Counted from the first letter of the stretch, positions 10,165 to 58,798 are shown. The stretch: DNA of 64,000 nt from Dictyostelium fasciculatum (GCF_000203815.1 NW_004457624.1:2994354-3058353); one strand, 5' to 3'. Translations and numbers: made by a program. Notes: a model not told the origin generated them from the letters alone.

Positions 10165-12132
10165 TTAGGAATAGGGAGGGGGAGGAGGATAGGGAGGAGA
10201 GGATGGAGGAGACATTTGATCTGCATCCTGGGGGGGTAGGTCGGGTATCTCCAATGTGTCTAGTAGGGCAGCATTGGTGATCTTGTCATATTGAATAGAT
10301 TTCCTCATCCTTTCAATGATATAGGATTGGATAGTTGATACAAGACTGGTGAATAATTGTTGGCATAGACTATGGTACATAACTGTATTTTTACAGCGAT
10401 AGAAATAGGTGTTGAATATTGATGAAAAGGTAGTTGGAGGAGTGCCCATTAACATTAGGTAGGCTGTGTTGGTGTTATTGTCTGTAAAGTGTGATAGCCA
10501 GGACTCGGTCGGGCTGATCCTGAAGCGTTGCTTTTCAAATGCCTTGTTAAAGCATTCTTGAATTGGATCGATGAGAGACCATGCTTGGGGACATTCAAAA
10601 AGCGTGTGGAATGGGGAGTCCATGGGAGGATCTTCTGGGTTGATGTTGTTGTCCATACAATATAGACAATGGCCAGAGGTGATCTGTTTCATTATAAATA
10701 TTGAGTGCCTCCATGGCCCAGTTGTGATATAGAGTTGACGTTGGAATTTAAATAAATAGTTGGGCATTTTTTTAATTATGATTCTGTATAGTTGTTTATC
10801 GAAGTTTGTTGATAGCATTTTGTTTTGTGTACTTTTCTTGCTCCATTCGATATGATTAGAATTTTGATCTACCATTCTGACATATCTTTTGATATTTGGG
10901 ATAAATCGTTCATGCTCGGTCTCTGGAGTGAAGTTGGTGGTGAAGAAAAAGGGAAGAGGATTTGTGTTTGGTGTTGGGTCATCAAGGTTAAGTGATGCTT
11001 TGGCAAGAGCATCTGCTTGGTCGTTACCAAAGATGTTTTGCCTATCCTCTAGTGACGACTCGTCGTTAACCTTTAAGTGGGCTTTAATTTTTTCCAATTT
11101 GGTTGTTGCGTTGTTGATGTTCCTGGTGTTGATAATGTTTAGAATATCTAGCGCTACTGGCGCAAAAGGTTGGCCTAAAATTGGTGTGATTGAATTTGCT
11201 TGTGTAACTATACGGGTGACGTCTATCGAGACTTGGCTGTCTGTCTTGATGGTGAGGTGGTGATTTGGGGGGACTGATCTTAGTGCTTTGTTGATGGCTG
11301 ATAGTTCAGCATTGTTGATTGTCTGAGTGTTGTTTACTCTAAATGAAAAACTATTGCAAGAGGCAGTTGGGTTGGTCGATAAAAAAGTTGCCTCGTCAAT
11401 GACTAGAGTCGTGTTGTTGTCGTTGGGTTGTGGTGGTGGTGGTGGAGGAATATAGACACCGCACCCAGCTTTGATACGATTGGGTGATTTGGGAAGTAGC
11501 GTTTCCAGTGATGGTGAGAGGTGGGTTGTAGGCGCTTGGCAAGAGCCATCTGTGAATATTGTCCAGGTGAGAGCATTTTCCTCTTCATTGATTAGATTGT
11601 TGTTTTGTTGTTGTTGTTGTTGTTTTTGTTGTAAGTGGTCTAGCAATTCCTCAATGTCACTACGGAGCTTGTAAGGTCTGCTACCAGAGCAGATATGCTT
11701 TCTTACATTTTCTAGTTCAGACTCTCCTAGCTCTAAATTTAGTTGTCGTGCTTTCCTGCGCGAAATAAATGTATTGTCTTGTTCAAGGAGGGTCTGTATT
11801 GTTGTTGAGTGATAGCAAGTCTTGAGTCGATCAAGAGTTTTCGACAAGTAAAATGCTGGGTATAACGCTCTCTCGCTATAATCTATTTGTTGTATATTAG
11901 TGTTGAGGGAGCAGTTGTACTTTTTTAGGAGGGTATTGATGTGTTTGAGGTATGGGTTGTCTGGTTGGATGTATAAACAGTGATTGTTGTCTTTGCTGTA
12001 TGATTGCTTTGCCAGCCAGTCTTCTGCTATAATGCTTGTTGTGGTTTTAACTTTAGAATTAAGAATTCTAAAAAGACTGTTTAGCTTGAGAGCATTGAGC
12101 TCTGTTTCTACATTACGAAGCCCCAATCCCAT
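10165..12132 (-). pseudogene. retrotransposon ORF2 fragment: RNase H plus C-terminal Cys/His zinc knuckle, with a proline-rich tail
   Basis: TDGS...GCGVY...NNxAEL...TDSQ RNase H signature, followed by a CCHC-like motif. Frame-disrupted relative to the RT piece. Confidence 0.8.
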
Positions 12133-12403
12133 GTGCTCTATGTTTGCATAGTATATGTTGTTGTTGGTGCAGTTTAGGTATTCTTTTTGAATATTTAACT
12201 GCTCGTAGAATGATTGTGTTGAGTTGGTTTATCTGGTATTTAGCAAATATTATTATTGATGCTGCATAAGTGATTTGAGCTATTGTTATAGAGTTGATGA
12301 GTGTGATTGTTTGTTGAGTGATTAATCTTCTCGCAATGTGGTCTAAAAAGGGAGCTATTTTTTTGATGATATAATTAAAATGGTTTTTAAATTTGAGGTC
12401 GAG

Positions 12404-13696
12404 TTATAGTAAAACACCAAGGTATTTGTATGGTTGGTGTTTTAAAAGTAGAGGAAGAGGAATATTATTGATATGAATACGAGAGTCAGGTACAGATGAA
12501 GAGTTGATTGCGTATGCACTTTTGTTGCTATTTATCTCCATTAAACAGTAAGTAAAGTAGTTATCTGTAATGGTGACAAGGTTTTGTAGTTTTGGAGTGC
12601 TGTATGCGATTAGCGCAATGTCGTCAGCAAATGCGAGATTGCTGTAGCTGTTGGTAGATGAAGGAGACATAAAGTAACCATCTTGCGATGAGAGATGATG
12701 TAGAAGGGGATCTAGAAATACGTCGAATAGAAGAGGTGAGAGCGGGCAACCCTGCTTGACTCCAATAGTATCAATAGGATTGGTTAAACCATAGGGAGTG
12801 ATTATTTGTACTGTAGAGTGACTCATGATAGAAGAAATGATATCTATAAAATCCTGACCTATACCTTTCAGTTCTAATCCTTCTATTAGGTTGACGAGAC
12901 GTACCGAGTCAAACGCCTTTTTGACGTCGATGTATGCAATGTGTAGTGGACTTTTTTTGGTATTACTATTTAGAATGATGGAGTTGATGGCGTGGAGCGC
13001 ATGGTCTGTGGATCTAAACGGCCTAAAGCCAAATTGCGTGTCCGAGAATTGATGTAGAGGGTGGTTTGGGTCGTTGCTCGACTCGATAACTTTGGAAAGA
13101 CGTTTGGATAAAAGTGAAGTGAATGTCTTGTAGAGGCTCGACAGCAAGGTTATTGGTCTATAGTTGGAGGGGTCAGTGGAACTGCCACCTTTATGGATTG
13201 TATAGACAGTGCCTCTTCTCCAAGAGGCGGGAATTGTTCTCAACAACAAGCAGCCATTGTAAAGGTGGAGTAGAGCAGCATCCAGGTTGGTTGGACCGTT
13301 TTTCAGAAACTCATTGTAAACTTTGTCCAAGCCTGGCGATTTACCATTCTTCAAGTTTGAAATGGTTGTGGACAGTTCGTCTATAGTGATGGGGTTGGTG
13401 ATGGTAGCTGCATTTGGATTTGGTGATTTTACCATTTCAGTCAACCAGATTGGTTTTGGTGGTTGTACAGGTGGAGGTAGTGGTGCCAGTAAGTTGGTGT
13501 AAAAGTGTTCAATCTCCTCTCGCACCTCGTCTGGTTTCGAGATTGAAATTGGTGCATTGGTTAGAGGGTCGATCTTTGTCACCGTGGTCAGTTGTTGGTT
13601 GAGAATGCTATTACAACCCTCCTTGGCGATATTAAAAAAGTTATTAATATCAAAAAAAATCAGGTATTCATAAAACGTTGACATATTAACCTCCAA
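12404..13696 (-). pseudogene. retrotransposon ORF2 fragment: reverse transcriptase domain
   Basis: YIDVKKAFDSV, QGCPLSP, FADD and KYLGVLL motifs, in the canonical order of RT domains 1-7. Confidence 0.85.
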
Positions 13697-14631
13697 GTCA
13701 CTTTTGAGCTGTATCGACTAGAGATATTAAAATGAAGCATTTTAAAGTATATATTGTTAAATTAGACTATTAAATGACCATATGGTCAAGTTATCCATAT
13801 ATTTTCATTAAAATTATGATATCCAAAAAAATGAAATGAATTTTCTTCATTGACCACTAAATCTTTGAAATCAGGATTGTAAAAATTAGTATGATTATTG
13901 ATTTAATCAATAATAATGATACAACTATGTTAATATATCATAGTTATAATATATAAATAATAAAAAGAATGATAAAATTAAATTTAAAATTTTAGAGTAG
14001 TGAGCTGTAGCCTTAGATTTTTTACGAAAGAAAGGAATGTCTCACACTATGGAAAATGATGGTGGTGGTTTCTGTTGTCAGATATTTTGTCAGTGTTTGA
14101 TGGTCGGGGGGCGGAGGCAGCAGCAGATATGTAGTCCGGCGGCGGCTTAGTTGGCTCTGGGCAAGTATATTTTTTAAATTAATATTTCCTGTATTTTGAT
14201 ATTTAAAATATGATATATAGTTAGATTATCAGTTAAATATATATTATAATTGAATTTTATTGATTTATAATTAATTTCAGGATTAAAAATTGAATTTTAA
14301 AAATTAGTGATTAAAAAACGGGAAATTAAAAATAGGGTAGAATAATTGATAGGTTTTTATAATATTATTTTGAGCTAGAGTTGTAAGAGCCAATGTGCAT
14401 CTTGTTGTGATGTAAACCCACAAATAGCACAGGCACTGAATAATATCAACAATACATTGGGGACAATGAACAATTCAATGGTCGAATTGGCAAACAGCGT
14501 AGATGTCCTCAACCAACCCAAAACATGGTGACCACGAGAAATATATCTTATCACTATAAACAATTAAAATGGAAGGAATGATTTAATAAATATTAATTTT
14601 AATTTGATTTAATTTTATTTAGAAAAAGGTT

Positions 14632-32894: not shown

Positions 32895-34834
32895 TTAAAT
32901 TGTAGACATGAATGCAAATTTGCCTGGAATAAGGTTAGTTTTACCTTCAATGATCGAACCACTATTATGTGATACGAGTGGGAATGAAGTGCATTGCCAT
33001 TGATTGGCAGAGTTGACATAGGCTAGACAAGCATTTGACAAGTTGAGTGATGGATTTGGATTCTTGAAATAAATTGAACTAGTAGTTGAAACTGTTAGAA
33101 TATTCACTAGAAAAAAAAGAAATAAATAATTAGTATCAAACTTAATATTATTAATATATATTATTTTTGGCTTACTTTGAGAATCTCTAAGAGTAAGTTT
33201 AAATGGTGGAGATAAGAGGTTTGAATAATAATCAAAGGTTGAAGAAATTAATGAACTGGAAACCTTGGTAGCATAGGAATCGGCGTATGGGGCAATCTTG
33301 AGATGATCACTGGTGGCTGGAAGATTGGAGCCAAGATCCAAGAAAATGTTAGAGCCGATGGTGAATGGTGTGGCGGGTGAGACGTATCTTTGCAAGATGG
33401 ATGCAGTGGCACGAGTTTGTTGATAGACAAGGGTGGCTGTGACCATGACACGGTTGGAAGATGGGACTTTAGTGGTACCATAGTTGCTGCATTGTGAGGG
33501 ACTAGAGACACATGCATAGTTGTCTGGACACTGGTATTGGAATGCATCACATCCTTGGTATGGTTGGACGGGTGCGCCGGCGGCAAGACATCCAAATGGA
33601 GTTGGGTTGGTGCCGGCTGGACATGGGTCGCAGGTTGCGGTGGCTGCCTTGCATCCGTCGGTGCATCTTAATGGGAGGCTTGGAGGACACGATGGCAATG
33701 GTGGACATGTTTCGTACGAGACGGTGCATTGACCGGTCCAACAAAAGAGTGATCCGCCTACTGGCTCGGTACGCATGCAATACATGTCGAGAAGACAGTC
33801 GCCGGCGTTAATACTGGCTTGAGAAAGACAAGAGAACGATGCACCGCAACGAGACTCGCCAGCTGGACAGTCGGCAGCCAAGATATTGTCGGCTTCATAG
33901 GGATTGTCGGTAGTGTAGATGTAAAAGGAGACAGAGCCTGCAGCGCACTTGGTGAAGCCTTGAGCTTTTTTAAAGGTGACTGCCGAGCCCGAGGTGTAGA
34001 TGATGTTGGGGTTGATGAGACCGGGTGTGCGGAAACGGGTGGTCGAGGTGGCGCCGTTGCAGTTGATGTTTCCGTCGGCCGAGTGGATCAAGTTGAAATG
34101 GACAGAAGTGTAGTTGTTGACACTACCGACGACGAGTGGGGGGTATGCGAGTGTAAAGTTGGCGGTGGCCGGGTCGTTAAAGTTGACAAAGCTGTTGGCA
34201 CCCAATACAATCGATCCAAAAGTCTCCCTTTGGACGGTAGAGTAGGTGGCAAGGACATTCGTGTAGGCGTTAAAGTTGAGAGTGGTCGATACAACGTTGG
34301 CAATATAGTTACCGAGGTTCCAGGTAGACGATAGGAAATTGACCGATCCACCATTCATGTTGACGGCAACCATCGACACACTACAATAGGAAAAGTTGAG
34401 TGAACCGGCGCCAGAGATGGGTGCTTGGAATTGGTAGTTGCAAAACTGTCCTCCCATGAGCTTGGATCCGTCAACAACCAATGGCACGTTGGACAAGAAG
34501 TTCTTGGCATTGAAAATGGTTGAAGTACCCAAATTGACGGTTGGTGGTGATGTCTGACTTGTAGACACTTGGAAACCGGCAGCAATGGCAGCAGTGGCAC
34601 CTGGAACAACTACAAGTTTACCTCCAGTGAATAAATTGGTACTGGATGCAGTCAAAGCAGAGGTATAAGCAAAATAACCAGTTGCAATCTTGGCAACCAA
34701 TAAACTAGTACTATCAAGTTCTAAAATAGTATCACTAAATGTTGATGTTGATGTAAATGATAAATCAACACTAAAAAAGAGAGAGAGAAAAAAAAAGATA
34801 AAGAGAAAAGAGAGAAGGTTAATGTTTGTTTTTC

Positions 34835-34866
<32 letters not shown>

Positions 34867-35208
34867 CCCTTCATACTTTGATAATTTTAAAGTTGAAATT
34901 GTACTACTAGCTGAAGATGATTGAATAGAGACTGGAGTAAGGATGGCCAAGGTTTGGAGGGATTGGATATGGCAATTGAGAGAGAATTGGAATTGGACGT
35001 TGAGACCGACGGTGATGGAGAGAGTGTCGAGGATGAGTGTAGCATTGGTCATACTCAAGACTTCATTGTCTGCCAAGGTAAAGGGTGTGGAGACGGTTAA
35101 CACTGTATCTACAATGTTGAGTGAGAGGGCAACTGGCATAAAGCAGAGACCCAAGATTACAGCCGTGGCAAGTATCATTCGAATTAGAGGAGAGGAGGAG
35201 GAATTCAT
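32895..35208 (-). CDS. secreted cysteine-rich glycoprotein, 3 exons: complement(join(32895..33106,33176..34770,34877..35208)), about 712 aa
   Basis: Exon 1 is MNSSSSPLIRMILATAVILGLCFMPVALSLNIV... (signal peptide), with a GTATGA donor at 34876. The intron (34771..34876) contains an A30 run, seen as poly(T) at 34840-34866 on the plus strand. The ttttttAG acceptor is at 34772/34771. Exon 2 has NxT-rich beta-helix-like repeats (NFxxxTxNF), then a Cys-rich region (CPPLPSCPPSLPLRCTDGCKAATATCDPCPAGT...). A GTAAGC donor at 33175 leads to a short last exon; an alternative acceptor at 33093/33092 is also in frame. Confidence 0.65.
34840..34866. repeat. poly(T) about 27 nt (A-run on the minus strand), inside intron 1 of the Cys-rich glycoprotein gene
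   Basis: Directly visible. It is translated as a spurious KKKKKKKKK in the 659-aa track ORF. Confidence 0.9.
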
Positions 35209-39163: not shown

Positions 39164-39753
39164 TATATATATATATAACAGTTATAAAAGATAAATAGAT
39201 AAATAGATAGTTATCTAACAACTAAAGAGAAATGAATGTATTTTGCACTTTGATCATCTTTGGTTGCCTGGTAAAAGATTTTTAAATAAAAAGATAAAAT
39301 TTTTAAAGATAAAAAACAAGAAAGAGCAAGATAGAAAAAGTACACCATCAATATTATTATTCTTACTTATTATTTTTAACACATAGTACTATCATTTATC
39401 TATCTATCTATCTTTACATAGATAAAGTTAGAAACGGTCTTAAACTCGTTTGAAACTTAATGGAAAATAACTTGATAACCTGAGACAGAGGTTATCTCTT
39501 ATAAATTTCCAAAAGATTTTTGGTGTAGATCTTTTGTTTTGGTCTACTATAAACAAGTAACTTCTCTGCTGTAGTGGTAGATAGATACCAGTAACAAATG
39601 CATTTAGTTTAATGCTTCTAGTATATTCTATTTCCGTGACAGATATATGATCATTTAAAAAGTATGTATAGTACTACATTACATACTACTTGGGGTTGTT
39701 TGTACTAATATAATATATTATCATCTTTCTCTCTCTCTCTCTCTCTTTAAATA

Positions 39754-42700
39754 GTGAAAGAAGATTTGGAATATAAATGTTTATTATTCAAGAGATTATT
39801 AAACAATGATAGAGTGTCAAAGGTGATTTGGTTGAATGTACACAAGATATTGGTTCAATATACAAGGAGTTTTAAAAGTGAATATCATCAGATCACTGCA
39901 TACACTCATTATCCGAGGGCAATGCTATTTAAATATCGTGACTATGCTAGTGTTAGATGTCTATCTACACTACTCAATCGGTTTGGATGGGAGCAGATTG
40001 ACAAGTTGTTTGTCAATGATTCAACTCATTTCTTGGATGATACAATGATTGAGGAATTGTCGTATCTGCGACCCGACTATATATACCATCACAGTAATCG
40101 TAATAGTGAATGGGGAAAACAAGTCTACGGGATTATACAATGTGAAGAAGAGGTTCAAAAGGATTATCAAGCATACGTGGACAACCCAAACAATTGGAAA
40201 CATCCAGATACCCTAGAACAAGAGCATCCAACCCAATACTTGATTGATCAAATAAGACAATGTACATTTACCACAAAGTACACCTCAACACAAAAGAAAC
40301 AATACATAACTCAAATACTCAACAACTTTAAAACACCTACAATATCTCAACAACAAAAACAACAATGGACAAAAAGATTTGGTTCAATTGAAACTAAAAG
40401 ATCTCAATCAATTTGTGAACAATTAATAGAATTTTATACAAATCAAATTAATCAAAATAATAATAATAATAATAATAATTTGGATGATACATTGGAAGGA
40501 ATAGGATTATTAAATTTATTTAGATATTATAGTTCACAACATGATAATTTATTGGTAGAGAATACTATAAAGAATTATCCACAATCAGTGGAAGTGTTGG
40601 TAGATGGTTTGGTCGAGTACGAAGACCACTTTTTCTGTCATTTCCATATGTTTGACGTACTTTGTAAAGTGGGTACACTACAACAAGTACAATATCTTGA
40701 TAAAAAGATATCATTGTCACCCACAGACGGCGTACGACAATCAAAGGCATCACACAAAGCAATGGATTGGGCAGCATCTCGACCAGATTCAAAGGCTGCA
40801 TTTGAAATTACAAGATTCCTACACCTAAATCGTGATGAACAATGTACACACCACGCAATACAAGACAACAAAAACACAGAAGTGGTTTTATACCTTATCA
40901 AACACAAACCAGTCCTCCAACACTACTATAGTATCCAGAGTGCCATCATGTCGCTGGATCTGTCGTTGATCAAATTTATGCAAGATCATTATCAATACGT
41001 AGATATAAAGGGACATAGAAACAGCCGACCAGTTGTGATATCTCGTTATCTTGTTGACGAGATGACATCAAGTCTCTCTGATGACAGCCTGTGCTCTATG
41101 ATTACCTATCTCTTTCAACACTTTCAGGAAGAGATTTCTATCTACACCATGTTTGCCTCTGCATGCTGTAATGCTAGAATGTCGGCTGTCAAACTACTCC
41201 ATTCTCTATTTCCTCCCAGTCAAAGCAGTGGTACAGCTCTTGTCAGTGAAAGAGCACGAACTACTATTCTAGATGATGCGTTCTTGGTTGGTGTGGATGA
41301 TGAAATAGTTGATTTTCTCATCCAGAATAGACCAGACGTTCAATTTGGAGAGGATACATGGACCTATATTGGATCAAAAGGTACAATCAACCAATTGGAA
41401 ATGGTTATAAAAGAACATGCAAGTAGGAATAATATTGGATTGGCGGTGGTGGTGGACTTGGATCAAGTTCATCGTATCATATTGACAAATGCAATCAAAT
41501 ATGGTAATATTGATATGATTCAATGGTATCATCAATACCAACGCACCATTTATGATCAATTGATGTTAAAACCCAATATTATTGCACATACTCTATTAAA
41601 TGATAGACCAGATTGGATTGTTGATTTTTATTTAAAAGAAAATCAACCAACTCTCAATACTCTTCATTATCTGTACTATCGATCATTGGTTTCAGGTCGT
41701 GTAGATATTGCCAAAGCTATTGGTGAGCGTTTAGTAGAAGACACTCAACACTTGCAATTATCAGATCGAGAATTGAATCATATATTCATCTCAAGAAAAT
41801 TGGTTTCATTACAATACCTTGCACAAATTGGGTCAATCACTCAATCCATTTTAGAATCTCAACCTTTTATTCTTGCCAATTTTGATTCCATTCAATCAAA
41901 TACAATTAAATTATTTCAACAATTTAATTTAATATTTCCAAGACAAACTATTCATTATAGAGATCAAGATGAAGAAAAAGAAGAAAAAGAAGAAAAAGAA
42001 AATAAGATTCCACCTTTATCAATATCTCAACCAAATCCAACATTATTTTTAAAAATATTTAAAAATAGTTATTTAATTTCAAAAATAATGTCATTTACAC
42101 ATTTACCAAATCAAGAAAGATTGAATTGGAGTAGAATAGAAGAAGCTATTGATATTTTCAATTTATCACCAAAATACTTTAAATTGGTGTACAACAACAT
42201 GTCAACTGGAAAGATTAAAAATATTGATTCAGCATTTATAGAACGTGTCATTACTTGTCGAGACTTGGAAATATACCGATTGTTGTTAGATGACCATCTA
42301 GATACTTTTACATTTGACCATATCGTCACACTGGCAGGATGCTATGACATTCAAATGTTGGATATGCTAATGTTGGCACTTGACCGTCAAAAGAAACATT
42401 TAGAAAGATCAAAAGGAACGAGACAATTTGGTTGGATATCATATGACGCACAGGTGTTTACATACATGATATTCGCTCGATACAAGTACTGTGACATATC
42501 GGATTTATTTTCTGGATGCACTATCACCAAAAAGTACACTCCAAAACCTGTCATTGCCAAGAACAAAATACTACGCGAGTTTGATCAGTCGAGTTTTAAC
42601 CAGTGTCGAGCAAGTTTGGAAATAGGAGAGATGTTTAAATCGGCACTGCCTATGCTCAGCCTCGAGGAACTCATCATAGTGGCACACGATCCTCGCTTAA

Positions 42701-44020
42701 ATACACTCATGACCACCCGAAACAACCATCAAATGAAGAGTTTTGATAGTTCTCGCAATCAAAACAAAAAAAGAGTTGATTCGATTCTATCACCTCAACA
42801 TCAAAGACATTCGTTATGCACTGAAATTTTTAGATAAATCATCGTTCCCGTCGATACACGCCAAAACGATCCTCCACCTAGTCAGCAATCAAATACCACC
42901 CGCTGCTCAGCATCTATTGACTCCTCCGTATTCCCACCTAGTCAATTCTCATAAATGGAATGAACCAGATCTCAGTGTATACATTGATACATATGGTCTT
43001 CCAGACCCCGACACTCCACTCTTGATCGATCACACAGAGCTCACTGAAAACATGCGTCAAGTCGAGCCGTCATACTATGAACTAAACATACACGTGGATT
43101 GGAGCAACTACTCTCACGACTTGTTCTTTTCCAATAATATCGCTCCCTTTTACGCATATACTGGTATGACTTGGCATAAATTGGTCATGTCATCTCCCTA
43201 TTGTGATGGGTTTGAAAGAATATTTTCTTATTTGTACCCAATCCATTATCAAGACAAGGTCGACAAGTTATTACAACAATTCAACAACAATCAGAATGTG
43301 GAATTGACAGAGGAGGATAAAAAGTTTATCTTTACTCTGCCAAGAGTAGACCCAAGTTTAAATGTCGATCAAATGTACAATTTCACAAAGTTGGTATTAC
43401 TCTACACAAATCAATCACTTCAACAAGAAGAATTGGAGATTGATGAGGGTAGTACTGAGGAGTTTTGGGGGTCTTTGGCCCATGACGCTGGTAACAGATA
43501 TATTCAGCCAATGGGGTTCTATTTCCCAACCTATGCCATTTTCCTCTTGGAGACTATTAAATCGGATTGTCCAGTAATAGCAGACTATCTATTTAACCAG
43601 AGAGAAGATGTTGAAGCCCAAGTAAGAGTACAGATTGAAAATATTAGAGGTCATATCAACCAAGTTTTCAAAATCATTCTATATATTGGTACACCCGATC
43701 AATTTGAAGTGATTAGACAAGCATCATTGGAAGGTGCACAACTATTAAAAGCATTTTTCAACAAATCAACAACTCCCAACTGCATAGATATGGAACCTTC
43801 AATGTTGGAATATGTCATTTCCAAGATGGACAAGATTAATTTAGCCACTTATTTACTATCCGTTACCAATGCCACTCCCATTCAATATTCAACTCTTAAA
43901 AATCTTTGGATATCAACTTTTCCCAATGGAGCCCACTCTGGTTTCTTGCCTAAATTTAAACCTATCAATTATTCTTTAATTCAAATTTATAAACAAGATA
44001 AAGAATTTTATAATAAATAA
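39754..44020 (+). CDS. large ankyrin-like-repeat protein, interrupted: a 1027-aa ORF (39754..42837) and a 425-aa ORF (42743..44020) overlap in different frames at an A7 run (about 42765-42771). Either a pseudogene or a single gene with an error or frameshift. The 5' exon was not found
   Basis: Both ORFs are non-low-complexity and of similar character (NAIKYGNIDMIQWYHQ-type helical repeats). Frame A and frame B are both open across caaaacaaaaaaagag; a 1-nt change in the A7 run would fuse them into about 1450 aa. 39754 follows an acceptor-like site (ctctctttaaatAG|TGAAAG) with no in-frame ATG nearby, so at least one upstream exon is missing. Confidence 0.5.
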
Positions 44021-44095
44021 AATAAATAAAATAAATAGATAAATATTTTGAAAAAATGAATAAATAAATAATATTATTTATTTTGTTTGCCTCTT

Positions 44096-45925
44096 TTATT
44101 TTCTTGATTTCTTTAAATTTGATCCTTCTATTTGTTGTTTTTGTTTCTTTTTATTCTTTCTAGTCTGATATTGTTGTTGTTCAATATTAATATTATCATT
44201 TTCAGTTAATCCCAATTCTTTTTCTTTTTTTAATTTATATTGATTTTTAACAAATAGGAATAATCTATTATAGGTTGAATCTGATTTAATATTTTTCCAA
44301 GTACCAACCAATTTAACGTCTATTTGGTAACCAGAATGATAGAGATATAAAAACATCTCCATGTGAAATCCATTAATTAATCTTTCCATAAATGATTTTT
44401 GGTCAATGGCAAGATAATATTTTTTTAAACTTGTCGTGGAAACTAGTTGCCCTTGTTGATTTAGGAAATAGTGGAGCATGTCTACTTGTCCTGATTTGAT
44501 CATCTCGGGCAGCATTTGTTTGAGTGAATATTGTTTGGGGTACTCTGTCATCATATATTTGATGATTTGAATACTTCCACTCTTGAGGGCACTGTCTAGA
44601 TTATATACTATCCATTTTGGATGCCTAGAGTGAACGTATTTGAGATAATCCAGTCCTGTGCATCCATTGGTCATGACTAGTTTTTGAATCCTTTGACTTT
44701 CCTTTTCCTCTTTGATGTAGAGGTTGTAAAGTAGTCTTGACTGACACCTAGCAATCACTTCAATATCCGTTGACCATGTCACAGGTCTCAATTGATTGAT
44801 TCCGGTTTCGTGGCCCAAGAAACCAAGTTGTTGGGCGAGTTGGATGACTGGTTGGACGAATCGATGATTCCAGTTGTTTGATACAATAGATACTGCCGAT
44901 TCGACCGAGGTCAAATGTGGTTTGATCATGTTGATATCCTCTTCTTGAAATGCAAATTACAGTGGGTTGAATGTCGGGACTTTGGTTGGAGGACAAAAGT
45001 CAAAGCGTTCTGCGAGTTGTACGGGTGTAACAACTTGAGATAGATAAATATACACTTGTTCACTTTTGATGGTGTATGGCGTAAAACTATTGAGAGGGAT
45101 GGGATAGTCGTTGTCACGCATCAACATGATGACAGATACCGCATCACTGTCCTCTCTCATCATTGCATACTCCATTGCCTGCTCTCTCTCGCCGCTAAAC
45201 ATTTGAATGACGGTTGGCAAGTCCTCCAACCTGACATGCTTGAATATCCTATACGAAGTGAATGCATTGGTACCTGTATTCATCGCATCCATTGTCTTTT
45301 CAATATGAATCTGTTGATCTTCCATTTCCAACTCTAGCATTTCAGTTATACCCAATCCTTGTAACATCATCTTTCCTTTTAGGTATCTATTAATATACGA
45401 CAAATTGTTTAGTTGGTGAGGATGTCTAACTAGGAAATCATCCAAAGCTAATTCCAACGAATCAAGGTATTGATTATACTCGATGCTGGTCGATCGATAA
45501 TTTGCCTTTAACCATTTAGCAGCTTTAATCATTCCAAATGATATTGGTACCAATTTAAACTGACTTGTCATTTCATCAATTGGAAACATGATACGATGAT
45601 CAATTAGAAATTGTAGTACATGTTGATGTCCGTGTTTGAGTGCCGATAAATAAGATCCTTCAGTTGACAACTTGATTGGGTGTTCCTGATCGAGTAGTAA
45701 TTTGATGATTTGTAGATTACCAGCTTTACAAGCCGACTGTACCAAGTCACCACCCAAGAATGAGTTTCTCTTTACTTGATAGAGGTATTTGAATTGTTCT
45801 AGATCATCTACACGTCTACATATCATTGCGATTGATTTCTCTGTAAACGGTACATGAATACCTCTCTTTAACTTGTCAATCAATAGGTTGGTGTGTGCCT
45901 GTTGGTCGTGTTTATTTGATAACAT
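44096..45925 (-). CDS. ankyrin-like-repeat protein, interrupted by a single in-frame TAA (44959..44957): a 322-aa ORF (44957..45925) followed 27 nt later, in the same frame, by a 277-aa ORF (44096..44929)
   Basis: ...TFNPL*FAFQEEDINMIKPHLTSV... read on the minus strand. Both halves carry ANK-like helix pairs (ACKAGNLQIIKLLLDQEHP, ALKHGHQHVLQFLIDH, ALKSGSIQIIKYMMTEYP). The 17-nt stretch from the GTAATT after the stop to the next AG is too short to be an intron. Confidence 0.5.
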
Positions 45926-46998
45926 CTGTTCGGCCGTATACCAATGATCGTACCGACTAATTCTCTCTATACAACAACCAACATCTCTTCTCTGTTGATC
46001 ACTTCGATTATGATGTTTAATAGTATCGATTAAAAATCTATTCCTATATATATGTAATAATAATTCCTTTGTTGTCGTCCTAAAATAAATTAATTAACAA
46101 TAATAATATTGATAATCAGTATCTGCGATAGTTTTTCACTATCTATATCTATATCTATATATTTACATTATATTATCGTTACTATCGTGTATTCATTCTA
46201 CATATATATATATATATATATGTATATGTATGTAAGTAACTTTACTAAACCGAAACGAAACAACTACTATTTTTTACATTTTTCTTTTTTGATCAAACTA
46301 TTTAAATTAATAATTATTTATTATTTAATTATTATTAATTACTATCATATTTTGATTGAACAAAACAACAACAATCAACAATAATAACAAAATAATAATT
46401 TATTCATAAGTTCATAACAACCCGAAATCAAGGGAAGATATTTTTCATGAATAATATCTTGGGATTCTTGTTGGCCATCTTTGCTCACAATAAAACTCTA
46501 TCCTCGATCATAGCTTTCTCTTATCTATTACACCCCCTTTTTGTACAAATACATATATAACAATGCAACAATTCGATAGTATGTGTGTTGTGTGCATAGA
46601 TAGATAGATAGAAAGATAGATAGAAGATATATAGATTTCAATATTTTCACTTCTAACTTTTATTCATCACTGTATTTAGACTCATTCAATGAAAGACCCG
46701 CATCCAGTGGTGCTGGTAGACGTGGTGGCTTCCTCCCAACCCCTACTGGTGGTCCAACAATCTATTCACCAGTTGGAAGAAACACCAACTTGGCCATTTA
46801 AATAGTACTTCTTGTCATTCATCACCCCTTTCAAGCAATAAATCAATCAATGATCATGGTGCTTTGTCGTCATCATCTAGTCTCTTGATCCAAGAGAAAA
46901 ATGATATGATTGTTGTTTTGAACACTCTTAAATTCCACTGTCAGTTTGGATGGCTCCCTCCCTGCTTGGTGCTATATATACATATTTGTCAAACCTAT

Positions 46999-50753: not shown

Positions 50754-51465
50754 CAATGATATCCATCCACCATAGTGCAACTACTTCCATTGTACAATAA
50801 TATTAATATGTTTGTGAACAAATATAATACCATTTTAATTTAATATTTGAATATTTAATATTTCCGGTTATTTATTATAATTAATTATAGATGTCTTCTA
50901 CTCTTAAGAGACAAAAATATAACTCAATATGTATCAAAATAAGTTACAATAGATTATTTTTAAAACAATAGTCTCAGACTATTGTTCCTTTAATTCAATC
51001 TGGAGTGCTAGTATTATTTCCTTAAAAATACCAAAGTATTTTAAATTCTTTTTTTTTCAATACTACTTGTCTACTAGTAACTCCACTGGATTCATTTTGT
51101 ATCTTTAGTTATAAATATATTACCTAGGTGCACGCCTTGGGTTACAAGAGATGAAATGGAGATTCACAACAAACATTCTTTCATTCAATTTATCATCATA
51201 TTAGCCTATACACAACACAATCCATTATTCACAAGAGTGTTATTTCAATATTTATATATATATACATATTATATATACACCAATACATGTAGCTGCTGTG
51301 TATATTCAGATCTTCTAGAAGGAAGGAGGAGGAAGAGGAGAATAGAATGTGTACTTAAGAGAGGTTGAATGACAACTATTTGATATTTATGGACATTCAA
51401 CATTCAACAAACATTCAACATCATTTACTTATTACAACTTTTGTTATCATTCATTGTTGATACGT

Positions 51466-51520
51466 TCATTCATTCATTCATTCATTCATTCATTCATTCA
51501 TTCATTCATTCATTCATTCT
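51466..51520. repeat. (TCAT)n / (CATT)n microsatellite, about 13 units, in the PKS 5' leader
   Basis: ttcattcattcatt... run immediately upstream of the PKS ATG. It generates the SFIHSFIHSFIH extension in the track ORF. Confidence 0.95.
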
Positions 51521-51543
51521 ACACAGTTGTTTCTATACATCCA

Positions 51544-54500
51544 ATGGAAACTCAAGCCATTCCTATCAAGGAACAAGACATTGCGATCGTTGGTATCGGA
51601 TGTAGACTACCGGGTGGGTCGCGAACACCACAACAATTCTATGACCAGTTGGTCGATGGTTTGGATGGTATCACCAAGATGACAGAGGATAGATGGTCAA
51701 GATCATTTGTGGATCAAGGTTACATTGCTACTGATCGCGCTGGATTCTTGGACATGAAAGAGTGGACTCATTTTGACAACCATTTCTTTGGGATGCTTGG
51801 CAAGGAGGCTGCTTCCATTGATCCCCAGGTACGCCTCTATCTGTCTGTGCTTTGGGAAGCTTTAGAAGATTCACATATCGATCCTGCTTCCATAAGAGGA
51901 TCCAATACATCGGTATTTCTCGGTCAAATGTACGATGGAAACCAACACATTCTTTCTCAGGATCTCGCCACAATGATTGCGCAGGTCAAAACAGGTCGTT
52001 CAGACTCATCGATCAAAGCATCTTATTGTTATGATTTCCGTGGTCAATCGCTTTCGATTGACACTGCTTGTTCATCGTCACTGGTTGCAGTGCTCCAAGG
52101 TATCGATACCATCCTCAAAGGTGAAAGTGACCTTTCAATCTGTGGAGGTGTCAATATCTTTATCGAACCAAAAACATCAATCCAATTCACTGGCGCGGCT
52201 ATGATTGGAAAGAAGGGTGTATGTGCAACGTTTGATGAATCAGCCGACGGTTATGTCCGTGGTGAAGGTGTTGGTGTTGTCATTCTCAAGAAACTGTCAA
52301 AAGCAATTGAGGATAATGATAATATCTATTGTGTCATCAACGGTGGTAGTTGCAACGTCGACGGTAATTGGGAGAAGCTTTCACCAACTGCCCCCTCATC
52401 GGCTGCACAACATTTAAACACACAAAATGCTCTCAACAAGGTCGGAGTGACACCATCGGATATCTATTACGTTGAATGCCATGGTACTGGAACACCGACG
52501 GGTGACCCACTCGAAATAGAATCAATATCACGTGTGTTTGCAGGTTCACACAGCCAATCCAACCCACTCAGAATTGGATCGGTTAAAAGTAATATTGGAC
52601 ACACTGAAAGTACAGCCGGTGTTGCATCACTCATTAAATGTGCAATGATGCTCAAGAATAGAATGTTGATCAAAAATATCAATTTCAACAAACTTAATCC
52701 AAAAATCAATCTACTCAATGGTGAAATCAAGATTGTACTTGAAAATGAACCATTTCCAAATGATGGTAGAATAATTAGAATGGGAATTAATTCTTTTGGT
52801 TTAACTGGTAGTAATGCTCATATTATTCTTCAAGAATATAAAAATATAGAAAATTTTAATATTAATAATAATAATATTAATGATAATAATAGTACTACTA
52901 CAGTTGTCTCTATGGATAATGTTGGTAAGTTAATTTTAAAAACAAATTTATTTATTTAATTTTAATTTATTAAATATTTATTTATTTAGATTATTTAATT
53001 CCATTTTCATCAAATAGTCAAAAATCAATTGATTCTTATATTAATATGATCAAGAATAATGTTGAATTGTATAGTAACAAGATGACATTTGAAGATTTTG
53101 TTAGATATCAATCACAATCTAAAACAAACCATCCAACTTGTAAAAAGGTTATCATTGCCAAGGATTGGGAAACATTCTCCTCTGAATCAGTCCAAACCTT
53201 TGAAAAACAACAAACCTATGTTTCAAGTATGTCACAATTGAACAGCTCACCAAAACCAAAGATTGTGATGGTATTTTGTGGACAAGGTGCACAATGGAAC
53301 GGAATGGGCGAGAGATTGTATCAATGTCCAATATTCCGTAATGCTGCTGATCGTGTTGATAGATTATTATCTCGCCACTATCAATATTCAATCATTGATA
53401 AATTAAGAAAGAGTAATCAACAGGAAATACATCATCCAATCCTCGCCCAACCAGCAACATTTATCATTCAAGTTGCATTGGTACAATTGTATCAACATTT
53501 TGGTATTACTCCATCCATTGTAGTTGGTCATAGGTAAACATATTAAAATTAAAAAAAAAATATATTATTTGTTCTAATAATCTTTAATTATAATTTACTT
53601 TTAGTTTTGGAGATATAACAGCAGCATGGTGTTCAGGAATAATAACATTGGAAGAAGCTGTTAGAATAGTATATTTGAGAAGTGTTGCCCAAAATGATAC
53701 GATTGGAAGTGGAAGAATGTTGGCAGTATCATTATCATTTGATACATTCAAAGAGAGATTCCAACCGTCACAGTATGATTTGGTCGAGTTGGCATGTTAC
53801 AATTCGGACAACTCTATTGTATTGGCAGGAAATGAAGATCAACTCAAATCAATTGATCAACAACTCAAGAATGTTAATGTGTTTAGTGCATTCCTTGGTA
53901 CACCATGTGCATTTCATTCATCGGCACAAATTGAAACAAAGGAATTTATATTCAACAATCTAAATAATATAGAGTATCAATCATCTCAACCAACCATTCC
54001 ATACTTTTCAACTACAACTTCACAACAAATCATGTTATCGTCTCAAATCGATGCTCAATACATTTATGATAATCTCAGACATCCAGTATTATTCCAACAA
54101 ACAATCAACAACATAGTTGATTTCACAAAGAATGATAATGATGATGGTAATCAACAACAATATATTTATTTAGAGATTGCACCACATTCAACATTATCAT
54201 TCTATTTGAAATCATTGTTACCACAAGGAACAAGCAATATTCAATCACCACTCAACAAAAAGAAAGATGAAATTGAATCAATTCAATCTTGTCTATCACA
54301 ACTTTACTTTGGTGGTGTTTGTGTTGATTTTTCAAAACAACTACCAACGACCAATGATAATGAATGGAAGAATAGATCAAGACATCTTCCAAGATATCAA
54401 TGGGACACTGAATACTTTTTAGAGGAGCAAGAAATATATAAAAAGATTAGAACTGGAGGAGTGACAACTACTCTGCTTGGTTTTAGTGACAGTGAATCAC

Positions 54501-57500
54501 TCAATACCTATCACACATTGATCGATGTCAACAGACCATCGTATCAATATTTAAAAGGTCACAAAGTAAAAGGAAAATATTTGTTCCCAGGTACAGGATA
54601 CATTGAAAACATTATCAATGCATTCCCAAACCAAGACATCCACATTCACCATCTCCAATTCATTGCACCATTCTTTCTCAAAGAAGGAGCTCCTTGTCAG
54701 TTAAAATCAACATTCTTCCAGTCATCGTCGATTGAATATCAAGCTACATTCCAATACTATGATGATAAACTTGGGAAATGGATTAAATCTGCAGTTGGTC
54801 GTCTATCTGCCAACAACAGTCCAACACCGAATCCAACCAAAGAATTTGATAGCGTCGATCAATTACGACAAACATTCAATGTTGCAACCATGAATACAAC
54901 AGAGGTCTATCAAAAGTTGACAAAGGTTGGATTAATGTATGGAGAATCATTTAAAAGAACCAAACAAGTATTGTTTAGCGAGGATGGTTCGATATTGACA
55001 GAGATTGAATGCAAGTCTAGAAACCATTTTGAAGAATCAAATACCGTTTTGAATGCATCAGTTCTGGATTGTCTATTACATTCTTGTATTGTAACGTTTA
55101 AAGGTGAACATCCAAAATGTGAAGTTGTATTTGATAGAGTTGAAGATTTCCATATCTACTCTAACAATATTCCAAAACATCCATGCAACTCTTTGTTTAC
55201 AACTACCAAACTCCAACAACAACAACAACAACAACACACCAATTCACAAATTGGAAATGAATTTAAAAATTCAATTGATATTATCGATAAAGATGGAAAT
55301 ACTGTCATTAAATGTGGACAAGTAGTATGCACATCTTTGACAAAAGTATTAAAAGTACACCATGCCAAAAATCCATCCAAATTCATCAAACATACCATTT
55401 GGCAACCTAAAAATGCTCCTTCAACAGAGATGTCACTTTCATCGTCAGACATACTTGGATATTTCGGAAGATTCTTGGAGTTGTCAACAACCTCTCATAA
55501 AGTCATTAGAGTACTAGACTTTGGATTCAATTATCGTATTACCATTGATCTCTTTACAAAGTTAATTTCACTTTCCCATCCAAACACTATCATTGATTTT
55601 ATTACATACGATGATACTCTATGGGTTGACCTCCAAAAAGATAATCTGTTGATTAAATCGTACAATCCAGAATCAATCAATAAGTCAAGATCATTAACCG
55701 ATCAAGGTTTTCTTGCAACTAGTTTTGATTTAATTCTATCAACTATGGAATACATTTCTGAAAACAATCAAATGGCAGGTGAATTTGAAGAGTTATTAAA
55801 TCCAAATGGTCAACTCGTCATTATCAACACTACCCGTAATCAACCACCCTTTATCGATAATAATCATAATAATAATAATATGATAGATCTTTTGGAATCA
55901 CATCAACTCAATATCACTCATAATAATATTGAATCAAAAGATGAAATTGTTTTAATTGGTAGAAAATCAAGTGTTGAAGAAACAAGTATTGAAAAATATG
56001 ATAATTTATTATTTATTACTCCATCCTCTTCATCATCATCTTCATCTTCTTCATCATTGGCAAAGAGATTAATTCAACAATCATCAACAAATTTGATTGC
56101 AAAGAAAATTAGTTATTTTTCAAATGATGATATTATGGATGAATCTAAATATCAATCGTTATTAGACTCGATATCATACGATAGTGTAAATTGTCGTAGA
56201 GTTGGAATAATATATTTAGAATCATTGGAAGAAATGAACTCTAAAAACCTTGAAGTCAAAACAATGCAACTTATCAGATTACATCAAATCATCAGAAAAG
56301 AACAACTACCAATTAGATTAATAACATTGATAGCTAGTCAATTAAATCATTGTCTAAGATCCATTGCAAGAGAATATGGATCAAAAGCAAGAGGTGAAAT
56401 GTTCCATTTTAATTCCATCACTATCATTTTGGACGATAGTAGTAGTCAAGTAACACTTGAAAAGATATTACAATGCGCAAACTCTGAATATCTTGGAGAG
56501 AGTGATCTTCAACTTGTATGTCAAAACAACAATCAAGACGATATTCAATTATTTGTAGAAAGAATTATAGAATCACCTCAATCATTAGAATTGGATTCAA
56601 AGTTTAAAGTTGACAACATTCAAGATTTAAAAGTTAATTTTGAAATGGACAACAAATACCATCTAAGACAAAAAAAAGAAATCATATTAGATGATGAAGT
56701 AGAAATCCAAGTTAAAGCAGCGTCTATTAATTTTAAAGATTTAATGATTTTAGAAGGTAATGATTGAAACAAAAAAAAAAAGTATAAATTAAAAATAACT
56801 AATTAATTAACTTAATTTAATTACTTTACTTTAGGCAAAGTTGATCAAAGATTATTCCCAATGGGTGATATTTATAATCCACCACTTGGTCAAGATTGCT
56901 CAGGTGTTGTGACAAGAATAGGACCAAAGGTTACAAAATTCAAAGTTGGTGATGAGGTTTATGGTAATGGACTTGGTTTTGCTTCATCGACAGTAGCATT
57001 TGAAGATACGATTGTACTAAAACCAAAGGAACTGTCATTTGTTGAAGCAGCTTCATTACCCTTGTCTATGGGAACTGCTTGTTTGGTTTTATTCAAAAAG
57101 GCAAATATCTATCCAACAGAGTCTATTCTCATTCATAGTGCAACTGGTGGTGTTGGATTGGGAATGTTAAACCTTTTAAAATTCAAAAAACATACTGGAA
57201 AGATATTTGTAACGGTTGGATCAAAGGAAAAGAAACTGTATCTTGAAAAACAATATGGTTCATTTATCACTGCAATTTTGGGTTACGACAACTTTACTAA
57301 AAGTATAACGGAACAGACACAAGGCAAAGGAGTAGACTATGTCATCAACACACTCGACTATACAAGAATGCAAGACAATTTCAAATGTCTCTCGAGAAAT
57401 GGAGTGGTTGTTGATTTGTCGGTTGATCAATTCTTCCAAGCTCGTGATATCGATATGGGGTCACTCAACTTTGACAAGGGATACCTGACATACCACTTTT

Positions 57501-58798
57501 CACGTAAACAAATGTATATCCACCAAAATATTAAACAAATGGTGGAAGAAGGATTGGAGGTTCCCCCAATAACAGTATTCCAAAGTCACCAAATTGGCCA
57601 AGCATTTGATCATGTACGTTCAAGAAAACATATTGGCAAGGTGGTAATAGATTATGAAAATGTTCAAACAGATGTGATTGATCCAATTTTATCACAACCA
57701 CATAAACCAGTTGAAAGAGTAGATTACGATTTGGACGGTATTCAAGAAACACTTCTCATCACTGGACAAACTGGTATTGCAGTAGAGTCGCTTGGTTATC
57801 TCGTCAAACATTCATCCAAACTACGTGATATCATTGTTGTCACTTATTCAACTCCAAAATTTGAAATTCAATTATTGGTCAACGAGCTCCAAAAGAAATC
57901 CATCAAACTTTATTTTGTTCGTTGTGATATTGGAGATTATGATCAACTCAAATCATCTGTACAAGATCTTTACAAAAGAACGCCAACTCTCAAACCAGTG
58001 TCGGTCGTTGTTCACTGTGCCAACACTTATGTGACGATTGCACCCGATGACATTGAGCTGGAGAGTCATCATGCAGCCATGTCGGGTAAAGCAACCGGAG
58101 CATTTAATCTTCACAATCTGTTTGAAGAGCTTGGTTGGAAACTAAACCATTTCCACATGTTATCTTCGGTTGCCAAGTATATCCCTGTCGACGGTCTCAG
58201 TTACTCGATTGGCAATGCATTCCTCGATGGCCTATCAAGATACCGAAGAGACCTTGGATTGGAATCAACCTCTATCAACTGGGGTTCCATTGGACAGGCT
58301 GGAAAAGCAGCGTCAGACAAAAGTGTCGGTTTAATCCTACATACGATCGGTCTAATGATGATGCCATTATCAGCCATCTATGGTATATATAGAGGCTCAT
58401 TCATCAACACTACCACACCAATCACCAATCTCATTTGTGCCGATCTACAAGCCAAAAGTCTTGTTTCAGAGTTGCCACATCTCGAACATTTCTATTCACA
58501 TTACTTGAATGTTGCCAACAGTGGCAATGGGGGTAACCTATTGGATGCAATTGGAAGTGCCGGATCAGTTGTTGACAAAAAGATACTGGATTTCATTTCA
58601 GATGCACTTTCAATCGAGAAACATTTGTTAAATGGCGATACCAAACTCAAAGATTACGGTGTCGATTCAATGACTGCCATTCAAATCAAAGGCCAAATCG
58701 AATCAGAGTTTAACAAACCTCACATACTCAATCAATCACATATTTCAAATGGTACTATTAACTCTATAATTGAAAGTGTTAAAAAGAGTTTGAAATAA
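51544..58798 (+). CDS. pks: type I iterative (fungal/dictyostelid-style) highly reducing polyketide synthase, KS-AT-DH-(degenerate MT)-ER-KR-ACP, 4 exons: join(51544..52924,52990..53533,53605..56756,56835..58798), about 2346 aa
   Basis: KS: IAIVGIGCRLPGG, DTACSSSLVAVLQG (active-site Cys), ECHGTGTPTGD, GSVKSNIGHTESTAGVASLIK. AT: VFCGQGAQWNGMG and VVGHS|FGDITAAW, where the GHSxG motif is split by intron 2. DH: LKGHKVKGKYLFPGTGYIE. The MT-like region has no intact GxGxG. ER: LGQDCSGVVTRIGPKV, HSATGGVGLGMLNL. KR: LITGQTGIAVESLGYL. ACP: DYGVDSMTAIQIKG. Introns are 65, 71 and 78 nt (GTAAGT, GTAAAC, GTAATG donors) and lie in interdomain or motif-adjacent positions. There is no TE, no reductase and no type III (chalcone-synthase) C-terminal domain. 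Confidence 0.95.

Follow-up and report, generated by a model that had tools for sequence, protein, structure and literature searches.

Two convergent genes in a 64,000-nucleotide (nt) stretch of nuclear DNA of Cavenderia (formerly Dictyostelium) fasciculata (GCF_000203815.1 NW_004457624.1:2994354-3058353; hereafter the window, in whose coordinates all positions are given) each carry one lesion in an otherwise continuous coding sequence. The plus-strand gene changes frame at or beside a run of seven adenines (A7), and the minus-strand gene contains an in-frame TAA codon. The explanation that we favour, tentatively and with a probability of roughly 0.45, is that these would be two unrelated lineage-specific genes for all-helical repeat proteins, once single long open reading frames (ORFs) of ~1430 and ~670 amino acids (aa) and now with one single-nucleotide lesion each, of which the TAA would be a genuine, very young nonsense allele and the frame change a miscall of homopolymer length.

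The plus-strand coding region comprises an ORF of 1027 aa (39754-42837) and a second ORF of 425 aa (42743-44020) in the +1 frame, which overlap by 95 nt. These lengths agree with those in a first-pass annotation of this DNA, which had also placed the frame switch within the A7 run; the run is present, at 42766-42772 rather than 42765-42771. On the minus strand, ORFs of 322 aa (44957-45925) and 277 aa (44096-44929) share one frame and, just as had been described, are split by TAA at 44959..44957. The genes are indeed arranged tail to tail, and the AT-rich spacer between their stop codons (44021-44095) measures 75 bp instead of the 76 bp claimed. Both genes reach past the ends given in that annotation, the plus-strand gene by an upstream exon and the minus-strand gene by an open frame that runs to 46079/46093.

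The plus-strand gene starts with a 34-nt exon (39664-39697) that carries the ATG and encodes MYSTTLHTTWG-. The GenBank model DFA_12218 (P0001), a C. fasciculata hypothetical protein with 95% identity to the gene over the aligned part, maps here, and a canonical 57-nt intron (39698-39754, GTTTGT...CT-rich...AATAG) joins this exon to the long ORF to give the annotated N-terminus. The upstream coding segment follows (39755-42772, ~1007 codons in the frame of ORF 39754-42837), then the downstream coding segment in the +1 frame (42773-44020, ~415 codons and a TAA stop). In the minus-strand gene, the main exon of the N-terminal half (44960-46079) encodes the leader motif LLHIYRNRFLIDTI, RYDHWYTAEQML and ANK repeats. 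This half is 100% identical to DFA_12220 (P0004), and its homology to paralogs starts at 46069-46093. Beyond the TAA (44957-44959) lies the C-terminal half (44096-44956, 286 open codons and a TAA stop), which is 100% identical to DFA_12219 (P0005), annotated apart from the ATG at 44929. The annotated 5′ part of DFA_12220 (46080-46348) consists of a 198-nt intron, a 20-nt exon, a 45-nt intron and a 6-nt first exon; it is without homology support, and its two upstream micro-exons appear dubious.

Intact relatives in the same genome connect the two parts of each gene. The deletion of one A from the A7 run yields a 1421-aa protein that is collinear from end to end with the paralogs DFA_06564 (1393 aa, covering 99%) and DFA_03515 (1464 aa, 97%). 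In the DNA, homology to the paralogs can be traced in the upstream frame as far as 42717 (...LIIVAHDPRLNTLMTT) and is found again in the +1 frame from 42761-42773, where the block ELIRFYHLNIKDIRY, from which homology continues downstream, aligns with IMRFVHQNIKDIRY and IIRFVHQNVGDIR of the paralogs. Because the +1 frame opens only at 42737, the shift is confined to 36 nt of poorly conserved linker (42737-42772), which holds an A4 and the A7. The latter is the likeliest place of the surplus nucleotide, and a run of six or nine adenines (A6 or A9) would bring the two segments into one frame.

For the minus-strand gene, an exhaustive HMMER search found that the C. fasciculata paralogs DFA_04295, DFA_03595, DFA_00646 and DFA_04379 match both halves, their own C-terminal halves aligning to the segment beyond the TAA. 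(A word-index protein search missed DFA_12219 despite its 100% identity to the C-terminal half and its presence in the collection; negatives from that search are uninformative.) With DFA_00646 and DFA_04379, single tblastn high-scoring segment pairs run through the TAA at 44957-44959. The AFQEEDI block of DFA_04295 aligns directly 3′ of the TAA and, judged visually, the GLEN that precedes it lines up with NPL*F such that E stands opposite the stop. None of the annotated paralog proteins is split at either lesion point. The first-pass annotation had proposed a comparison of the ORF segments with genome-wide paralogs; intact copies do exist, they are collinear over both lesions, and each ORF pair is thereby shown to represent one ancestral gene with one lesion.

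To see whether splicing could remove the lesions, we enumerated all GT..AG pairs that restore an open frame around them and compared these with bona fide introns of the window. The latter are 57-95 nt long (the smallest seen is 57 nt) and 75-94% AT, with donors of the GTAAGT/GTAAGA/GTATGT/GTAAAC type and T-rich acceptors ending in ...TAG or ...CAG. The reference set was provided by a type I polyketide synthase gene at 51373-58798 (+), which has a KS-AT-DH-ER-KR-ACP layout and three canonical introns of 65-77 nt. Every other ORF-to-ORF junction of host genes in the window is a canonical intron, and lesions such as those described here are therefore rare in it.

Frame-restoring pairs do exist, and the idea that short or unusual introns have gone unrecognized could draw on them as well as on the GenBank models, which use ‘introns’ at both sites. 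All candidates, however, have a coding-like composition of 55-71% AT, are without GTAAGT-like donors and would remove blocks conserved in the paralogs. The best-looking one (42740-42833, 94 nt, with a ...TTTTTAG acceptor) would take out the LIRFYHLNIKDIRY block, which is kept in both paralogs. At the TAA site, the enumeration gave no in-frame candidate that is shorter than 42 nt or AT-rich. The GTAATT...AG stretch around the TAA (44960..44944, minus strand), which the first-pass annotation had considered too short to be an intron, is 17 nt long as compared to 57-95 nt for real introns, is not a multiple of three and is out of frame. No plausible intron thus removes either lesion, and the probability that splicing takes them out is close to nil.

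The GenBank models mask both lesions by artificial introns. The DFA_12218 model drops ~155 residues that are conserved in the paralogs. It bypasses the frameshift by an ‘intron’ at 42614-42941 that is 328 nt long and 57% AT, and also cuts out an in-frame 135-nt ‘intron’ at ~41504-41638; the 45 residues lost by this (GNIDMIQWYHQY...DFYLK) are conserved in both paralogs, and this ‘intron’ is probably false or at best alternative. The DFA_12220 model contains a 20-nt ‘intron’ (45053-45034) and ends in another frame at a TGA (45001-45003), 45 nt before the in-frame TAA, and the DFA_12219 model is the downstream ORF taken from its first ATG.

The coding sequences on the far side of both lesions are well preserved. 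The downstream ORFs are free of stops over 415 and 286 codons (composition-based P of 1.6e-12 for the plus-strand gene and 1.6e-10 for the minus-strand gene), and all four segments retain a coding codon-usage signal in their frames. In a three-taxon comparison, the branch of the plus-strand gene measures 0.51 upstream of the lesion (paralogs 0.45 and 0.68) and 0.74 downstream of it (paralogs 0.74 and 0.87), and the broken gene retains paralog-invariant residues as well as the paralogs themselves do. Of six trios for the minus-strand gene, five give it a branch no longer than those of the paralogs for both halves, and one (P0007/P0017) gives it a slightly longer branch for the C-terminal half (0.91 vs 0.82). 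The paralogs are only ~35% identical. Over ~2040 codons we found exactly one lesion per gene and no relaxed constraint in the form of a second lesion or of a branch accelerated relative to intact paralogs. Because decay does not extend beyond one base per gene, the lesions are either very recent or not real. The recent pseudogenisation proposed in the first-pass annotation has in its favour that homology to intact genes runs across a disabling lesion; its other hallmark, relaxed constraint, is missing, since the branches resemble those of intact paralogs on both sides, and pseudogenisation could only be very recent, in which case it would look the same in the assembly as a sequence error.

Under programmed recoding, ribosomes would shift by +1 on the A7 run, or transcription would slip there, and the TAA would be read through; the slippery AAA AAA A at the shift site and the intact state of both downstream ORFs speak for it. 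Known +1 frameshift sites feature a stop or hungry codon. The 0-frame at the A7 site reads AAA AAA AGA GTT, and neither a stop nor a rare codon is present there: of 242 arginine codons in these genes 117 are AGA, more than of any other kind, and the 0-frame does not meet a stop until 21 codons beyond the A7. At the protein level, the annotated paralogs run continuously through the region of the frameshift. Furthermore, A7 is short for slippage by RNA polymerase II, UAA is the least leaky stop, and TAA TTT GCA is not among the known contexts for readthrough. Codon reassignment is ruled out by the use of TAA as the standard terminator in the window, where it ends 11 of the 14 long ORFs, those of both genes included. 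Recoding, which the first-pass annotation had likewise held to be less likely, is in our estimate very improbable.

A tolerated split, or gene fission, in which lesions in linkers leave the halves to be made as separate proteins and the downstream parts remain under selection, has somewhat more to recommend it. The TAA falls in a stretch with a predicted local distance difference test score (pLDDT) of <50, with a folded helical half on either side, the ATG at 44929 from which DFA_12219 would start follows it by nine codons, the frameshift similarly falls in a linker of low conservation and low model confidence, and the downstream halves are without decay. The gap between the TAA and this ATG, however, is only 27 nt and leaves no room for a promoter, and eukaryotic ribosomes reinitiate poorly once they have translated an ORF of 380 codons. 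In the plus-strand gene, the first ATG of the downstream ORF lies ~104 codons in, and no paralog is split at these points. We give fission a slim chance. The broader proposition that the locus is neither dying nor misread, and that lesions in disordered linkers with maintained downstream halves mark an ongoing fission (with DFA_12219 starting at ATG 44929) or a low-level recoding switch, is likewise a long shot.

Each lesion may be a mutation or an error of the deposited sequence. Roche 454 chemistry tends to get homopolymer lengths wrong, such runs are at the same time real hot spots of mutation by slippage, and ~4-5% of substitutions create stops. We weighed the two possibilities using indel-error rates, this stop-creating fraction and the frequency of strain-specific loss of function in lineage-specific genes, all of which are rough priors and not a measurement. 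On these priors, the minus-strand gene probably does carry its TAA, as a young nonsense allele: a point substitution would have created it in the linker between two repeat domains, leaving a 382-aa N-terminal fragment and an untranslated C-terminal half, and DFA_12219 would be an annotation artefact. For the plus-strand gene, the same priors lead us to lean, with less assurance, towards one extra base in or beside the A7 of a variable linker as a homopolymer-length miscall of an assembly made from dideoxy and 454 reads, in which case the gene would be intact; a real slippage indel at this site is a possibility that we hold in some doubt. Several considerations weigh against the combination of a genuine TAA with a miscalled A7. 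The split between real and erroneous rests on our own prior estimates. The A7 site does not discriminate, homopolymers being real mutational hot spots too. The lesions lie 2.2 kb apart and could have a common cause, such as a low-quality assembly patch, which would make the TAA an error as well. Finally, the precedent of D. discoideum shows that TAA errors do occur (PMC5282741).

Dideoxy and Roche 454 reads underlie the assembly of the C. fasciculata genome (PMC5282741). In the D. discoideum reference, RNA sequencing (RNA-seq) has proven errors that include an omitted base as well as in-frame TAA codons for which 100% of reads have TTA, and annotators had masked these errors with impossible introns (PMC5282741). 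The first-pass annotation ranked assembly error among the less likely explanations; given the type of assembly and the proof of both kinds of error in a dictyostelid reference (PMC5282741), we do not follow that ranking. In the window itself, ~15 homopolymers of at least 7 nt occur in long ORFs and only the A7 at 42766-42772 is tied to a frameshift. We found no lesions in conserved genes of the window, and its sequence is free of Ns and other marks of low quality. Sequences that span either lesion were sought in metagenomes, with 0 matches, and the locus tags of these genes are not mentioned in any paper or supplement found.

If both lesions were genuine, as the first-pass annotation held, two adjacent dispensable lineage-specific genes would just have been knocked out, either in nature or while the sequenced strain was propagated in the laboratory. 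Loss is expected in species-restricted families, no conserved gene of the window carries a lesion, slippage at homopolymers is real, and the link of only one in ~15 long coding homopolymers to a frameshift argues that miscalls are not rampant. Set against this, two independent and equally recent events would be required in adjacent unrelated genes, neither acceleration nor a second lesion is seen over the ~2040 codons, and 454 chemistry offers a ready alternative for the A7; we regard this course of events as rather unlikely. The opposite view, that both lesions are reference errors, for instance in a locally low-quality stretch, and that both genes are intact and functional with three GenBank models as work-arounds, seems to us less likely still. 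The small fraction of substitutions that make stops would imply many silent errors nearby or bad luck, and the absence of Ns and other poor-sequence signs from the window does not fit such a stretch. In favour of this view are (i) the perfect preservation of both genes apart from the lesions, (ii) the distance of only 2.2 kb between these, (iii) the mixed dideoxy and 454 assembly, (iv) the implausible introns in the annotators’ models (20 nt; 328 nt at 57% AT), and (v) the precedent of a dictyostelid gene whose reference sequence had a false 1-bp indel and two TAA codons that were equally false (PMC5282741). We retain the combination of a real TAA and a miscalled A7 as the best explanation.

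The two genes differ in what can be said about their families. The first-pass annotation had described both as encoding degenerate ANK-like helix pairs and had taken them to be possible paralogs of one family. The description fits the minus-strand gene, in which the A...G....I..LL-type motif occurs three times vs 0.22 expected (P ~0.0015). Its N-terminal half scores slightly below the Pfam cutoff for Ank_2 (22.1 bits vs 27.3) and its C-terminal half has no Pfam match. Its paralogs pass such cutoffs (P0006, Ank_3 24.0 vs 22.3; P0010, Ank_2 42.6 vs 27.3; P0011, Ank_3 25.3 vs 22.3), and HMMER matches to its residues 10-150 are mostly annotated ankyrin proteins. All its full-length relatives are from C. 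fasciculata, and more distant matches are ankyrin proteins of Cavenderia, Heterostelium and Synstelium. The family layout consists of an N-terminal leader motif, an RYDHW block, ankyrin repeats and a C-terminal helical-repeat half. The AlphaFold model of the minus-strand gene product is all-helical, with paired short helices in two folded halves (mean pLDDT 67.7), and predicts residues 308-326 around the stop (pLDDT <50) to be a linker. A Foldseek search of the PDB with this model gave no match at E <= 0.001 and only weak solenoid matches, to ANK (Espin1-AR, FEM1, EuHMT1), PPR and other proteins.

For the plus-strand gene, the ANK-like character is weak. Its best Ank match is a single Ank_3 repeat below threshold (17.6 bits vs 22.3), the helix-pair motif is not enriched (2 observed vs 0.54 expected, P ~0.1), and its paralogs DFA_06564 and DFA_03515 have no Pfam match at E <= 0.1. 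The family has three members, in C. fasciculata only, also when searched with a profile. The model of its C-terminal module (pLDDT 53.9, with the lesion region <50) is too low in confidence for interpretation or a fold search. Judging from profile and motif matches, only the minus-strand gene appears to fall in a recognizable ankyrin-repeat family. A shared family for the two genes is not supported by their best BLASTP E value of 0.48 or by an hhalign probability of 7% (E 0.005) for an alignment of 88 columns in one ANK-like repeat. What they have in common is a 14-residue leader motif and a generic all-helical repeat character. The first-pass view of both genes as lineage-specific is upheld by the restriction of the plus-strand family and of the full-length relatives of the minus-strand gene to C. 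fasciculata.

Many ankyrin-family proteins of dictyostelids carry the leader motif, [FILVM]xx[ILV][FLYIW]x[NQ]xx[LIFV]xxx[ILM], N-terminally. It lies at 46034-45993 in the minus-strand gene and at residues 12-25 and 765-778 of the plus-strand gene product (~39787-39828 and ~42046-42087). It occurs twice in each member of the plus-strand family and twice in the Heterostelium ankyrin protein P0013 (residues 6 and 659), and this duplication suggests tandem two-module proteins. Among dictyostelid ankyrin proteins with the leader motif (DFA_04295, DFA_03595, PPL_01262), the minus-strand gene is at home by its leader motif, RYDHW block, ANK repeats and C-terminal helical repeats, although its own copy scores slightly below the Pfam Ank cutoffs. 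The plus-strand family carries the same motif, twice, but differs in being without a significant ANK match or similarity to the minus-strand family.

Elsewhere in the window, long ORFs belong to the type I polyketide synthase, which is split by short AT-rich introns, to a SAGA-Tad1 subunit, to an ammonium transporter and to mitochondrial carriers, and tRNA and Rfam scans of the window gave no match. A retroelement remnant lies at 10168-13717 (-). Its RVT_1 ORF (12404-13696) is succeeded by an in-frame stop, past which 96 codons stay open (12116-12403) before the frame changes to that of an RNase H ORF (10165-12132); the remnant is either a decayed copy or another lesion pair. A 29-nt homopolymer at 34838-34866 (A on the minus strand) is located in an intron of the gene at 32895-35208 and is followed by a long CT-rich polypyrimidine tract.

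Both genes resemble young unitary pseudogenes and strain-specific loss-of-function alleles in that a single disabling lesion, a 1-nt homopolymer indel or a nonsense codon, interrupts an otherwise intact ORF, in that intact paralogs exist elsewhere in the genome, and in that the families are confined to one species or clade. They differ from such pseudogenes in showing neither relaxed constraint nor a second lesion, and their lesions are putative. The closest parallel on the side of error is provided by the reference sequences of D. discoideum clcD and DDB_G0279477, which contained the same two types of lesion, a 1-base frameshift and an in-frame TAA, and whose models dodged them by implausible introns as do the C. 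fasciculata models (PMC5282741). In contrast to the lesions described here, which are those of an assembly, the D. discoideum errors were proven by RNA-seq, and the work-around introns were shorter than 5 bp, whereas the C. fasciculata models employ 20-nt and 328-nt introns and a split into two gene models.

Either outcome, young gene-killing mutations or sequencing errors, is ordinary and would not surprise a specialist. For curation, the GenBank/UniProt entries DFA_12218, DFA_12219 and DFA_12220 are artefactual models of two genes, and two of them, DFA_12219 and DFA_12220, each cover half of the same gene. Lesions that are errors would be further cases of a problem already known from dictyostelid reference genomes. 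A real TAA would make the minus-strand gene a dated example of birth-and-death turnover in the expanded ankyrin-like families of dictyostelids.

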